Shown: piece after piece, positions 12,665 to 40,458 of the stretch | How positions within the stretch are numbered: the first letter of the stretch is position 1 | Layout: the number at the start of each line of letters is the position of its first letter | Source of the DNA: Alphaproteobacteria bacterium | GTDB lineage: Bacteria; Pseudomonadota; Alphaproteobacteria; Bin95 | DNA: 64,000 nucleotides | Direction: 5' to 3' | NCBI GenBank assembly: GCA_965205265.1 | Contig: CBDBGH010000003.1 | Coordinates: forward strand, 3,520,001 to 3,584,000 | Translations under genes and position numbers: made by a program | The notes under the pieces: generated by a model | What the model saw: only the letters and a program-made list of their open reading frames with translations | Told to the model about the DNA's origin: nothing | Databases searched by the model: none

Positions 12665-12678
12665 TGGTTGCGGGGGCA
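12665..12678 (+). repeat. Distal att core: 14-bp copy of the tRNA-fMet 3' end
   Basis: TGGTTGCGGGGGCA is identical to 40382-40395 and is followed by an arm (12683-12700) that is the exact reverse complement of 40368-40385. Confidence 0.9.
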
Positions 12679-12836
12679 CGCTACCACCGAGACCGACATT
12701 TGATCGAGGTTCCGGTTTGACCAGCGATAACTCTCTGATTTACTGGAAGATCGTATGCCGTAGCAGCATTCAGCTCAATCAGGCGTTCTGACGCTACGCT
12801 GGCTTGGCCGAGCTCTACTGTCTGTAGGTCAAACGA

Positions 12837-13646
12837 TCAGCCCCCCTTTCTGGCCATTCTTCTTAGCCATTCCGACTCGTCGATCGCCACGCGACTCAGC
12901 GTTGTGGCCAAGGTTTGAGCAATCCGTTGAGCGTACTCGGCCTTGAGTTCACCTCGCCACCTGTACTGCTTGTCACAGATACCCGTGAACTCGAATCCGC
13001 CATCTGGGTCCCGCTTTGTTGCGGTTACGGTACCGCTTCCCACCGATGGCTTGAATTTTCGAAGAACCCATCCGCCTGGGTCACGTTCGATACCCAGTCG
13101 CTCATATGCGTCATCAACGCTTACGACGATTTGTTCCATTCCTGCGGCTGGATCTACCAGAGGCAGGAAAAAGAACACTGTCTCCTCATCCAACCTCACG
13201 CAATCGCATCAAGGCCTCATGCAGATCAGATGCTGTTCACTGTCCGCTTGAAATGCCGTAACAACGGTGCCCAGCCACAACGTCGGCGGCGGCGCGTTGT
13301 ACACCGTCCGAAAGCTCATAGTCCAAGCCAACTGTGCGTCAAGGCCGACGCCATTTTGGCCGGAGAAACCGGCGGAGAGACCTTCGTAGGCGCTATTTCT
13401 CAACACACTCGCTGCCAGACCCTTGTTCGCCAAAGTAATGGTCTGCTCCAGATCGAGGTTTCTGTCGCCGAACGCGAATGTCACGGCTCCATCGCCTTTG
13501 CGTCGTATCCAACTCTCGACTGCTTCAGCGCCTGCAGGAGATGCTTCCGCAACAGAGTTGTACATCAGTCCTCTAAGCTCTTCGGCCACATGGTTTACGA
13601 TCTGCCGTTCCGCATCTTGGGGATCGGATAGACATGCTCTGTGGGG
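12837..13646 (-). pseudogene. C-terminal remnant of a 'response regulator receiver-like' protein of the type found in defence/RM loci
   Basis: LWLGTVV...LICMRP*CDCVRL...YRWRGELKAEYAQRIA...LSRVAIDESEWLRR; in-frame TGA at 13209-13211; 5' end cut by ISKra4; lower GC. Confidence 0.55.
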
Positions 13647-13695
13647 GAGTGAGTCTCATATGGCGGGACGTTTTGTCGTGCTGAGTTGAGCTTTT

Positions 13696-38375: not shown

Positions 38376-38717
38376 ATGCTGCTGGCGCGGCATGCCGCGC
38401 CAGGGGCGGCCAGGGGCGCGCAAGGGCATGATTCGATGCAGGAAACCCCATACATGGCCGGTTTGACAGGGCCGGATCGCGGACCCAGACCTATTCCCGG
38501 AAGCATGGTGCTGCGGGAGATGCGGGAGAGCGGGGAATGCGGGATTGCCGCCATGCGCGGCGCGTCGGCGAACGACAACCCCGGCCCGCAGGCGCGGGTC
38601 GATGCCGCGGTGGCGACGCTGGCCCGGCTGCTCGGCCGGCGCATCGCGCGCGAACAATTCGACAGGCGCGCCGCGGCCAACGACAATGCACCGACCGGGG
38701 AGGCCGGCGAGAGATAG
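38376..38717 (+). CDS. Small hypothetical protein with two ANDN motifs immediately upstream of the recombinase (start uncertain)
   Basis: SANDN...LARLLGRRIARE...AANDN; stop 13 nt before the recombinase ATG. Confidence 0.45.
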   Translation: MLLARHAAPGAARGAQGHDSMQETPYMAGLTGPDRGPRPIPGSMVLREMRESGECGIAAMRGASANDNPGPQARVDAAVATLARLLGRRIAREQFDRRAAANDNAPTGEAGER

Positions 38718-38730
38718 GAGACCTTTCATC

Positions 38731-40425
38731 ATGACCCTTCGCTGCGCGCTGTATGCCCGCTACTCGTCCGACCAGCAGCGGGCGGCCTCGATCGAGGACC
38801 AGTTCCGCATCTGCCGCGAGCGCGCCGCGCGCGAGGGCTGGAAGGTGGCGGGCGCCTACAGGGACTCCGCCATTTCGGGCGACAGCATGATCCTGCGTCC
38901 GGGCATCCAGGCGCTGCTGGAGGACGCGCGGCGGGGGATGTTCGAGGTCGTGGTCGCGGAGGCGCTCGACCGGGTGAGCCGCGACCAGGCGGATGTGGCG
39001 ACGCTCTACAAGCACCTGCGCTTCGCCGGGGTGACGGTGGTTACGCTGGCGGAGGGCGAGATCGACGAACTCCATGTCGGCCTCAAGGGCACCATGAACG
39101 CGCTGTTCCTGAAGGACCTGGCGGCGAAGACGCACCGGGGCCTGCGGGGCCGGGTCGAGGCCGGCAAGTCGGGCGGCGGCCTCTGTTACGGCTACGACGT
39201 GGTGAAGGCGGTCGATGCCGCCGGCGAGCCGGTGCGGGGCGAGCGCCGCATCAACGAGACCGAGGCCGAAACCGTGCGCCGGGTGTTCCGGGAGTTCGCC
39301 GACGGCGCGAGCCCGCGCGCGATCGCGCGGCGGCTGAACGACGAGGGCGTGCCCGGCCCGTCCGGCAGGCTGAGGACCGATTCCACCGTCCGGGGCCATG
39401 CGAAGCGGGGCACCGGCCTCATCAACAACGAACTCTATATCGGCCGGCTGGTGTGGAACCGACTGCGCTTCATGAAGAACCCGGAGACCGGCAGGCGGGT
39501 TTCGCGCATCAACCCGCCGGAGGAGTGGATCGTCGCCGAGGTCCCCGAACTCCGCATCGTGGACGACGAACTGTGGCAGGCGGTGAAGGACCGCCAGGGG
39601 GAGATCGCCGAGAAATACGCCACCGTCATCGCCGCCACGCGCGCGGGCCGGGCGAACCGGCTGAACAGCGCCCACCGGCCCCGGCACCTGCTGTCGGGCC
39701 TGCTCGAATGCGGCGTCTGCGGCGGCCCCTGTTCCATGCGCGGCCAGGACCGCTACGGCTGCTCCAGCCACGTCATGACGGGGTCCTGCGCCAACGGCCG
39801 GGGCATCCGCCGCGCAGAGATCGAGGAACGCGTCCTCGCGGGGCTGAAGGACAGGCTGATGGCGCCCGAGGCCGCCGCCGAGGCGATGAAGGCGTATGCC
39901 GAAGAGACCAACCGGCTCAACCGCGAGCGCCGCGCCTCGGGCGCGAGCGACCGGAAGGAACTCGCCGGGATCGAGAAGCGGATCGCGTCGATGATCGCGG
40001 CCATCGAGGAAGGCGGCTATGTGCGGGGCATGTCCGACCGGCTGCGCGAGCTCGAAGCCCGCCAGGACGCGTTGAACGAGCGCCTCGCCGCCGTGCCGGC
40101 CGACATCCCGGACATCCACTCCAACATCGCCGGCATCTACCGGCGCAAGGTCGAGCGGCTGGCCGAGGCGCTGGACCATCCGGAGGACCGCGACGCGGCG
40201 GCCGACGCCATAAGGGGCCTGATCGAACGCATCGTGCTCACCCCCGGCGCGAAGCGCGGCGAAATGCACGCCGCGCTGCACGGCGACCTCGGCGCCATCC
40301 TCGAATGGGCCACCGCCGGTGTCGGAAACGGCAGGGGGAAGGGGGCGACCGACACTCCCGGATCGGGAATGTCGGTCTCGGTGGTTGCGGGGGCAGGATT
40401 TGAACCTGCGACCTTCAGGTTATGA
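38731..40425 (+). CDS. Large serine recombinase (island integrase); last codons encoded antisense to tRNA-fMet
   Basis: YARYSS, DRVSR, recombinase domain, CGVCG..YGC..C zinc ribbon, coiled coil; ends VVAGAGFEPATFRL. Confidence 0.93.
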   Translation: MTLRCALYARYSSDQQRAASIEDQFRICRERAAREGWKVAGAYRDSAISGDSMILRPGIQALLEDARRGMFEVVVAEALDRVSRDQADVATLYKHLRFAGVTVVTLAEGEIDELHVGLKGTMNALFLKDLAAKTHRGLRGRVEAGKSGGGLCYGYDVVKAVDAAGEPVRGERRINETEAETVRRVFREFADGASPRAIARRLNDEGVPGPSGRLRTDSTVRGHAKRGTGLINNELYIGRLVWNRLRFMKNPETGRRVSRINPPEEWIVAEVPELRIVDDELWQAVKDRQGEIAEKYATVIAATRAGRANRLNSAHRPRHLLSGLLECGVCGGPCSMRGQDRYGCSSHVMTGSCANGRGIRRAEIEERVLAGLKDRLMAPEAAAEAMKAYAEETNRLNRERRASGASDRKELAGIEKRIASMIAAIEEGGYVRGMSDRLRELEARQDALNERLAAVPADIPDIHSNIAGIYRRKVERLAEALDHPEDRDAAADAIRGLIERIVLTPGAKRGEMHAALHGDLGAILEWATAGVGNGRGKGATDTPGSGMSVSVVAGAGFEPATFRL

Positions 40426-40458
40426 GCCTGACGAGCTACCGGACTGCTCCACCCCGCG
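40382..40458 (-). tRNA. tRNA-fMet (CAT), integration target
   Basis: CGCGGGGTGGAGCAG...CTCATAA...TTCAAATCC...CCA; 77 nt; C1:A72 mismatch. Confidence 0.95.

Follow-up and report, generated by a model that had tools for sequence, protein, structure and literature searches.

The window, a stretch of 64,000 nucleotides of alphaproteobacterial DNA, carries an element of about 27.7 kb at the end of a ribosomal RNA operon. Judged by its anatomy, the element is an island whose insertion was carried out by a large serine recombinase (LSR) of its own; the original prediction of a serine-integrase island agrees with both this anatomy and the LSR domain matches. The following features were located:

12581 to 12664, minus strand: displaced native sequence formerly downstream of tRNA-fMet (attB outer arm), with terminator-like hairpins and T-runs on the tRNA strand
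12665 to 12678, no strand assigned: left 14-bp core copy (attL), the displaced tRNA 3' end, located by repeat search
12679 to 40381, no strand assigned: island body, about 27.7 kb, bounded by attL and attR; relatives have an empty attB
12679 to 12700, no strand assigned: P' arm of attP at the left end of the island, 22 nt, an inverted repeat of 40368 to 40389 (95% complementary)
12679 to 12720, plus strand: free-state 13 codons and TGA, by translation RYHRDRHLIEVPV and stop, that would close the LSR gene on the excised circle
16848 to 20267, plus strand: SNF2-family helicase, cargo; best PADLOC match DpdE, 9.6e-176
20917 to 25383, no strand assigned: three insertion-sequence transposase genes within the cargo, namely the next three lines
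20917 to 22040, plus strand: transposase, HTH and DDE_3
22500 to 24065, minus strand: transposase, DDE_Tnp_1
24190 to 25383, plus strand: transposase, Mutator family
25703 to 29994, plus strand: cargo block of two DNA methyltransferases and a PLD-family protein, by domain and PADLOC matches
25703 to 27910 and 27928 to 28848, plus strand: the DNA methyltransferases
28882 to 29994, plus strand: the PLD-family protein, a weak PLD match
33339 to 34514, minus strand: SLOG (YAcAr) domain protein, 1.6e-24
37775 to 38335, plus strand: Xre-type helix-turn-helix protein, its true start probably near 38000 by GC3
38505 to 38717, plus strand: conserved 70-aa gene, candidate recombination directionality factor, 13 nt upstream of the LSR start; GC3 0.88
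38731 to 40425, plus strand: LSR gene, 564 aa, its TGA stop (40423 to 40425) inside the tRNA gene, opposite the anticodon
40346 to 40376, minus strand: conserved hairpin in the final LSR codons, overlapping the outer P arm, 5 nt past the CCA end on the tRNA strand
40368 to 40389, no strand assigned: P arm of attP, which codes for ...GMSVSVVA; conservation extends over 77 distinct ends
40382 to 40395, no strand assigned: right 14-bp core copy, containing the symmetry centre GG
40382 to 40458, minus strand: tRNA-fMet, final gene of the rrn operon; tRNA-Met(CAT) by ARAGORN, with Rfam context

The insertion targeted the only tRNA-fMet gene linked to rrn, at its 3' end, where the final ~11 bases are now supplied by the island. 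Behind this gene on the same strand, Rfam places 5S, 23S, tRNA-Ala, tRNA-Ile, and 16S. The tRNA-Met(CAT) is of the initiator type, as direct reading of the sequence reveals a C1/A72 mismatch. In the displaced sequence at the far end of the island, a terminator scan recorded a terminator-like site at 12597-12581 on the minus strand. The ends of the island were confirmed by empty sites in two relatives that lack the enzyme (G012 and G015), where terminator hairpin, the same 14 bp, the entire tRNA-fMet, and 5S follow one another in uninterrupted order, a similar hairpin lying directly past the CCA end. The left flank served as the probe for these empty sites and gave usable ones from two of five genomes, its informative part being the last 40-140 nt; positions 11400-12500 of this flank are mostly repeated DNA, comprising an IS66 transposase gene and another repeat.

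The core sequence TGGTTGCGGGGGCA occurs exactly twice in the window, even with one mismatch allowed, as had been claimed for a 14-bp direct repeat; shuffled sequences gave 0.04 matches, and two matches were obtained in 0/100 shuffles. Likewise, repeat search and direct reading recovered the predicted perfect 18-bp inverted-repeat arms (12683-12700 and 40368-40385), which are contained within the 22-nt pair. Together with the empty sites of G012 and G015, the repeat and the arms uphold the assignment of att sites. The P' arm is also present at related attL sites of other genomes. The attP reconstructed from the sequence spans ~50 bp and consists of two 22-nt inverted arms flanking a 6-nt centre, and it is located within the final ~20 codons of the LSR gene. 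Its symmetry centre is the GG at 40392-40393 (12675-12676 in attL), and crossover would for this reason occur at that central dinucleotide, 10 codons ahead of the stop. The surrounding DNA has a high GC content, and chance alone gives it further imperfect inverted repeats about as long as these.

The recombinase itself is an intact LSR, with matches to the Resolvase (PF00239, residues 6-146, 5.3e-24), Recombinase (PF07508, 5.9e-21), and zinc-ribbon (PF13408, 4.9e-09) domains. In an alignment of 38 sequences, Y8, R10, Y11, and S12 are invariant, as are the zinc-ribbon cysteines C330, C344, and C353, with C327 nearly so; the nucleophile serine can be putatively assigned from the sequence. The zinc-ribbon domain is predicted to carry a coiled-coil insertion, with long helices at residues 361-375, 379-402, 405-426, 434-453, and 466-482 (block pLDDT mostly 74-91). 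Similarity to known integrases is remote, with PDB E-values from 7.8e-09 down and NCBIfam scores well short of their cut-offs; the CcrB model, for example, gives 69.5 bits where 900 are required. Among the ORFs scanned, no second resolvase-domain gene of the DsiA/CcrA kind was found adjoining the LSR. The CcrB profile score and the absent partner would place the enzyme outside the DsiB/CcrB clade.

The 3' end of the LSR gene reads into the antisense strand of tRNA-fMet. In the integrated state, the ORF ends in MSVSVVAGAGFEPATFRL, and its final nine residues (GFEPATFRL) and TGA come from the tRNA antisense strand, as originally read. For the free state, translation of 12664-12720 in the same register yields LVAGARYHRDRHLIEVPV followed by TGA at 12718-12720, which bears out the frame that had been proposed to stay open on the circle. 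A codon boundary falls after 40395/12678, and therefore the frame is kept across the crossover. On this reading of the sequence, integration and excision must exchange the last 9 and 13 residues of the LSR, respectively. Residues 529-564 have a pLDDT below 50 and no secondary structure in the predicted structure, and beyond W526 the protein overlaps throughout with DNA and RNA elements, namely a T-tract, the hairpin, and then P arm and core. Reconstruction of free-state tails covered nine attL-type sites in seven genomes: residues dictated by the P' arm are the only ones common to all, while beyond the arm a similar LIEV-type ending recurs in just five of the nine, all close relatives. The tail stops after 13-19 residues at eight of the nine sites and lacks a nearby stop at the remaining one; extensions of at least 50 residues were found at one attL site and in several P-P'-type proteins.

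In a set of 91 alphaproteobacterial loci, this arrangement is family-wide, recurring in 77 distinct gene ends at protein identities as low as 62%. The arm lies at the end of an open frame in 81 of the 91 loci (77 distinct ends), and none of the 77 has a stop in this frame within the P arm or anywhere ahead of the core; stops occur in the other two frames at the gene ends in 29/80 and 23/80 rows. Continuation into tRNA-like sequence was observed in 57 of the 77, and a 10-residue tRNA-antisense tail in 85 of the 120 closest protein clusters, with a longer one in three more. Arm variation in the 77 distinct ends is found mostly at third codon positions. The open frame and the third-position bias suggest selection for translation through to the end and favour a functional tail over a pure by-product, with the qualification that the open-frame and arm-codon counts overstate the case because the sequences are related. 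By these comparisons, tail exchange is built into a large family of alphaproteobacterial LSRs as a fixed trait. A literature search found no paper on this family or on a serine recombinase reading into tRNA-fMet, and PMC11476347, PMC3516476, and PMC12884075 offered nothing specific.

The direction of LSR reactions is generally reversed by a separate small factor that binds at the base of the coiled coil. A candidate for this factor is the product of the 70-aa gene, which has tblastn matches in 65 of 89 loci and no Pfam or NCBIfam match. A model of its complex with the LSR scored 0.72 against 0.32 for the best control, a pass that may reflect likeness to the solved SPbeta complex, since the modelled interface corresponds to the site at which the SPbeta directionality factor is described to bind its integrase (PMC11722253). 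The mark applied was reached by 58/80 solved complexes and 2/110 mismatched pairs; at least 76% of the contacts were shared by the three runs, and the pLDDT of the partner was at least 60. The modelled interface involves LSR residues 372-396, 464-497, and 518-523 at the base of the coiled coil, and helix 519-529, whose 518-523 part lies in it, directly precedes the tail. Against a factor role, the position of the gene immediately ahead of int, with which it apparently shares an operon, is unusual and would call for additional regulation.

The hairpin in the last codons is conserved as a structure. Among 34 window-like sequences, 97.1% of its stem cells are paired, and among a further 34 that are more distant, 92.8%, compared with 34-62% in a control in which the columns were slid by 1-3, and its covariation score exceeded that of 500/500 shuffles in both sets. 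At least five T in the 8 nt past the stem on the tRNA strand were present in 34/34 distant and 15/34 window-like sequences, the hairpin of the window itself having just two. It is covered by no Rfam family at gathering thresholds. A simple terminator scan made no call at 40000-40600 or at the equivalent place of a related locus (L127), because the loop exceeds the limit of the scan or the T-run is missing. On the tRNA strand, the hairpin resembles a replacement terminator, its putative function.

An explanation that joins these features, and that we regard as moderately probable when taken as a whole, is that of an island with its own LSR and a packed junction, in which the tail swap is mainly a by-product, the hairpin a replacement terminator, and a small protein the determinant of directionality. 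The tRNA-side end of the island would be crowded, with the P arm needed at the junction and the hairpin just inside it. On the tRNA strand, this hairpin would substitute for the rrn/tRNA terminator that the insertion moved 27.7 kb away. As the LSR gene faces the tRNA, its disordered C-terminal extension would be translated through these DNA and RNA elements, and any effect of exchanging the tails would be modest at most. As in other LSRs, a small partner would determine directionality; the 70-aa upstream gene is the candidate for it.

Rather unlikely, by our estimate, is that the tail exchange serves as a working state sensor, the form with the tRNA-encoded tail GFEPATFRL and that with the basic arm-encoded tail xxHR[Y/D]R... 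differing in stability, DNA affinity, or response to the factor. The frame held open to the core in each of the 77 distinct ends and the third-position bias of the arm codons would fit such a sensor, and the tail is tethered to the very helix that touches the modelled factor. In addition, F532 of the SPbeta integrase, 13 residues from its C-terminus, matters for directionality (PMC11722253), and the Mx8 tyrosine integrase reportedly changes its properties upon replacement of its C-terminus (PMC6070905). However, the tail is predicted to be disordered, free-state tails vary in both length and sequence past the arm residues (to the point of the long extensions noted above), each segment of the tail is already accounted for by a DNA or RNA element, and no degron-like ending was recognised by eye in either form. 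A wider version, in which the island senses its own state in two ways through the integrase gene, by the tail swap near the factor-contacting helix and by hairpin-limited antisense rrn transcription, is judged unlikely. If true, a basic C-terminus encoded by the arm would give way upon insertion to one encoded by the tRNA, such that integrated and free enzymes answer the factor differently, and the hairpin would set the reach of very strong rrn transcription antisense into int, coupling excision to growth state; tRNA-fMet islands throughout the Alphaproteobacteria would then share this control logic as a family.

It is less likely still that the hairpin is not a terminator and acts instead as a third recombinase-binding motif or as a structure of the int mRNA (for 3'-end protection or ribosome pausing). 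In window-like elements, the upstream stem half repeats the outer P' arm motif (GACCGACA) to give three copies, and the missing T-run of the window copy and the silence of the pattern scan would also be in keeping with this proposal. The distant 34, however, keep the stem through compensatory changes without repeating the arm motif and always have a T-run on the tRNA strand, and the native terminator of the empty sites is equally placed relative to the CCA end, which argues for the replacement terminator. Lastly, that the repeats are coincidental, or that the element entered by transposition or homologous recombination with the long ORF an annotation accident, is almost certainly wrong: the GC-rich region with its chance inverted repeats could be cited in its favour, but the repeat lies exactly at the junction with the tRNA CCA end, the empty sites match, and arms, core, and read-through of the same kind are found again in the 77 distinct ends, at protein identities as low as 62%.

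The archaeal virus SSV1 and mycobacteriophage BPs, offered earlier as analogies, are fair ones, in that an att site lies within a gene of the element and integration alters its product; the tyrosine integrase gene of SSV1 is split in two, while the att-bearing gene of BPs encodes a repressor and not a recombinase. Closer precedents are the myxophage Mx8 IntP/IntX and the serine recombinase DsiB. Mx8 integrates at tRNA-Asp. Unlike the present island, it is a prophage with a long attP and a tyrosine recombinase of different chemistry. Its gene, like that of the LSR, spans attP and acquires a new 3' end upon integration; a change in behaviour is reported for Mx8 only (PMC6070905, with Tojo 1996 and Magrini 1999 as references). 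The SSV integrase gene is likewise described as extending across attP (PMC4383910). DsiB belongs to the ssrA genomic islands of Dehalococcoides, and according to the report (McMurdie et al., 2011; PMC3146451), the 3' end of dsiB always overlaps att, its frame meets no stop until it has left the island for ssrA or the next island, and the idea is raised that dsiB is fully functional only on the circle. Both DsiB and the present enzyme are large serine recombinases at an island edge, at the 3' end of a tRNA-like gene. DsiB differs in its phylum and in its tmRNA target, tRNA-fMet being the target here, and it is CcrB-like and accompanied by a second, small serine recombinase, DsiA. No embedded terminator hairpin is described for its islands (McMurdie et al., 2011). 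The Islander paper states that serine recombinases were not known to target tRNA genes, such targeting being ascribed there to tyrosine integrases only.

In the present family, the LSR ORF crosses the proposed crossover point, and its stop comes from the target or from the far end of the element, the same being true of 77 distinct relatives. The recombinases of TP901-1, SPbeta (SprA), and 9iu2 (a 500-aa integrase), together with TnpX, CcrB, and XisF, share its domain set and have short inverted-repeat att sites; to our knowledge, attP lies beside and not inside the gene in each of these. A small partner modelled at the coiled-coil base would be a further likeness to the large serine integrases of phages and other elements. 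The family is a large clade of serine integrases, apparently not described before, whose target is the initiator tRNA gene at the ends of rrn operons; together with DsiB, it shows that a recombinase gene extending across its own attP is a recurrent design among serine recombinases and not an isolated case. With attP, attB, attL, and attR, naturally paired tail isoforms, and a candidate factor, it would offer a complete system in which the Mx8-type idea of integrase editing is testable in a simpler enzyme. The putative replacement terminator would be an example of an island mending the transcription unit broken by its insertion.

In keeping with mobility, the source genome has three copies of the element; across the order, 9 of 37 genomes carry it, with as many as six copies in one. 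A search of four metagenome runs (assembled contigs only) over 39000-41000 returned no circle or empty-site joint of the island, a result with no bearing on excision either way; the loose contig ends at 40380-40382 trace to tRNA-fMet genes that have their own terminators and lie in other organisms or at other loci, and those at 40393/40394 are branch points of short contigs. Designation of the cargo as DISARM or a complete Dpd system was rejected, as it comprises only the DpdE-like helicase, the methyltransferases, and the weak PLD match, and is interrupted by insertion sequences. With several of these, the island may be in decay.

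The 14-bp direct repeat that the original prediction had placed at the ends of the 27.7-kb island occurs in the window only at 12665-12678 (attL) and 40382-40395 (attR), with 0.04 matches expected by chance, and all elements of that prediction were found where it had put them. As had been claimed, the right copy forms the 3' end, including CCA, of a tRNA gene, and it is crossed from the island side by the gene of a large serine recombinase (LSR):

38731-40425, plus strand: LSR gene (int), 564 residues
40382-40458, minus strand: tRNA-Met(CAT), initiator type, last gene of an rrn operon
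ending 13 nt upstream of the int start: 70-aa gene, candidate directionality factor

The rrn operon is complete (16S, tRNA-Ile, tRNA-Ala, 23S, 5S), and a C1/A72 mismatch, as read from the sequence, marks its last tRNA as being of the initiator type. The predicted inverted repeat proved longer than described; its arms, P' at 12679-12700 and P at 40368-40389, span 22 nt, are 95% complementary and contain the perfect 18 bp. The reconstructed attP is 50 bp, centred on the GG at 40392-40393, which probably represents the crossover dinucleotide. Both reading frames were also borne out: integrated, the open frame of 564 residues ends in MSVSVVAGAGFEPATFRL; for the excised circle, the left repeat copy has the VAGA codons in register, and after them come RYHRDRHLIEVPV and a TGA at 12718-12720. 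The enzyme's domains (resolvase, recombinase and zinc ribbon) are those of large serine recombinases, and its resemblance to those studied is remote only.

Five complete genomes of relatives without the enzyme were probed with the left flank; two gave usable hits, and both carried a terminator hairpin, the 14 bp, a whole tRNA-fMet and 5S rRNA without interruption, in agreement with the assigned att sites and island ends. The window sequence left of 12665 has a hairpin-plus-T-run like that of the empty sites, and hence the native terminator was displaced 27.7 kb from its operon by the insertion. The native flank left beside the island at attL is only about 125 bp; beyond it, the chromosome side (10418-12500) is mobile DNA, comprising a transposase gene of the IS66 family and a further repeat, both multi-copy in relatives.

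Read along the tRNA strand, the P arm comes next after the CCA end, and after it a hairpin that lies within the end of int. Among 34 window-like sequences it forms a 14-pair stem with 97.1% of cells paired (34-50% with the partner slid by 1-3 columns); in a more distant set, also of 34, the stem has 9 pairs and 92.8% of cells are paired (34-62%). Compensatory changes occur in both sets, and covariation scores exceeded all 500 shuffles, a contrast inflated by the kinship of the sequences. At least five T in the 8 nt after the stem were found in 34/34 distant and 15/34 window-like sequences; the window's own hairpin has two, and a simple terminator scan made no call at the hairpin of the window or of locus L127. 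We read the hairpin as an island-borne replacement for the displaced terminator, which is well formed across most family members and which the window's GC-rich lineage has in degenerate form. Given this layout, all residues after W526 overlap the T-tract, hairpin, P arm or core.

The 70-aa gene has coding-type GC3, and 65 of 89 loci carry it upstream of int; a family search with its product found no matching family. Folded with LSR residues 300-530, the protein gave a score of 0.72 (best control, 0.32), passing a threshold cleared in 58 of 80 solved complexes and in 2 of 110 mismatched pairs, with at least 76% of contacts agreeing between runs and a partner pLDDT of at least 60. Its modelled helix (residues 27-52) sits on LSR 372-396, 464-497 and 518-523, the coiled-coil base and the last helix. 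The directionality factor of SPbeta is reported to bind its integrase at this place (PMC11722253). The model supports binding, short of demonstration, and the pass may owe to likeness to that solved SPbeta complex.

Whether exchange of the C-terminal tail lets the enzyme sense its state is a separate matter, and such a functional switch is considered rather unlikely. In its favor, the last 30 codons are stop-free in the 77 genuine ends, whereas frames +1 and +2 carry stops in 29 and 23 of 80 rows (three of them spurious), arm variation is concentrated at third codon positions, and the tail is attached to the helix that would join the modelled interface with the 70-aa partner. Against this, the tail is predicted to be disordered; in a structure model whose mean pLDDT is only 65.9, residues 529-564 stay below 50 and form no secondary structure. 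Free-state tails also vary. Read from nine attL-type sites in seven genomes (that of the window and another from its genome, three from relatives within the order, and four from the more distant Komagataeibacter, Bradyrhizobium, Magnetospirillum and Acetobacter), they stop after 13-19 residues at eight sites and have no nearby stop at one, and what all nine have in common is limited to the x-H-R-[Y/D]-R encoded by the arm; five closely related sites share a similar LIEV-type ending. The structural half of the proposed self-sensing island (att anatomy, empty sites and both frames) is supported; its regulatory half is hypothetical.

The element is mobile; three copies exist in the window's genome. 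The two besides the window's own (loci L002, L003, L008, L019 and L025; contig positions G000:C3:3391129-3442504 and G000:C3:4695645-4698657) have 92-93% protein identity, one being about 51 kb and the other having an interrupted int. At their right junction lies a 45-nt 3' half of tRNA-fMet and no whole tRNA, and the sequence beyond it is common to both and to locus L070; this half resembles a piece of tRNA that another integrative element has carried along or displaced. The enzyme occurs in 9/37 genomes of the window's order, with up to six copies per genome, and a protein search recovered 7573 relatives among 8000 candidates. Among the 120 closest protein clusters, 85 have the ten-residue tail from the tRNA antisense strand, 3 a longer tRNA-type tail and 21 other tails; in 11 the motif search gave no match. 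Scanning genomes gave 304 relatives; the 80 loci retained from these (62 to 93% identity) belong to Rhodospirillales, Acetobacteraceae, Rhizobiales, Sphingomonadales, Paracoccus and a few metagenome bins labelled non-alphaproteobacterial. Adding 11 from the order of the window brought the total to 91 loci; ten without a recognisable arm were dropped, and the arm at the end of the open frame in the remaining 81 gave 77 distinct ends. A whole tRNA-fMet-like gene follows in 25, and a tRNA-like 3' part then other sequence, or another tRNA(CAT), in 24; eight are tRNA-like but lie on contigs too short for a decision, 18 show no likeness to a tRNA and two stop at the contig end. In several non-tRNA ends the frame leads directly into the inner arm in inverted orientation, and these are intact attP or tandem junctions.

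Six loci of 81-84% identity (L015, L016, L020, L084, L088 and L089) lie at a different tRNA(CAT) gene, with the tail EGFEPPTQGL, so that target switching in the clade tracks a common acceptor-stem end. A 75%-identity subfamily (L005, G000:C3:423054; L009 and L174, G000:C3:3214604; L058 and L029, G010:C2:27669-37516) appears to use a second target within a DruA/DUF4338-like gene (PF14236, 2.4e-09). A fragment of that gene abuts the P' arm exactly at the crossover in two genomes; at L005 its partner is instead the tRNA-fMet half, as would result from recombination between attL of one site and attR of a different one. In a Sphingobium lactosutens contig (L112:4590-4760), a junction of the P-P' type comes after the 3' end of int, and beyond it lie another hairpin and another P arm with core, an arrangement that resembles an att-site array, either tandem or remnant.

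According to the Islander paper (PMC4383910), tRNA genes were not a known target of serine recombinases, and the integrases of Mx8 and SSV reach across attP; a review (PMC6070905) states that Mx8 integration creates a new 3' end of int and an altered enzyme. The closest precedent for an LSR spanning its att site is dsiB of Dehalococcoides tmRNA islands, which according to McMurdie et al. (PMC3146451) always overlaps the att site and has its stop only beyond the island, leading those authors to ask whether the gene is fully functional on the circle alone. Literature searches returned no account of an alphaproteobacterial tRNA-fMet LSR family, of which the supplementary tables of PMC8627217 might list members. 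The interest of the finding lies in the breadth of the family, the embedded hairpin and the full set of testable parts.

With genes for a DpdE-like SNF2 helicase, two methyltransferases and a PLD protein, the cargo at 16848-29994 resembles a cluster for defence or restriction. It matches no complete known system and is broken up by three different insertion sequences. Near its two ends lie the following reading frames, possibly a further transposase present in duplicate:

13696-15081, minus strand: ORF of 461 aa, weak UPF0236 match (1.4e-04)
30050-31432, minus strand: ORF of 460 aa, weak UPF0236 match (1.5e-05)
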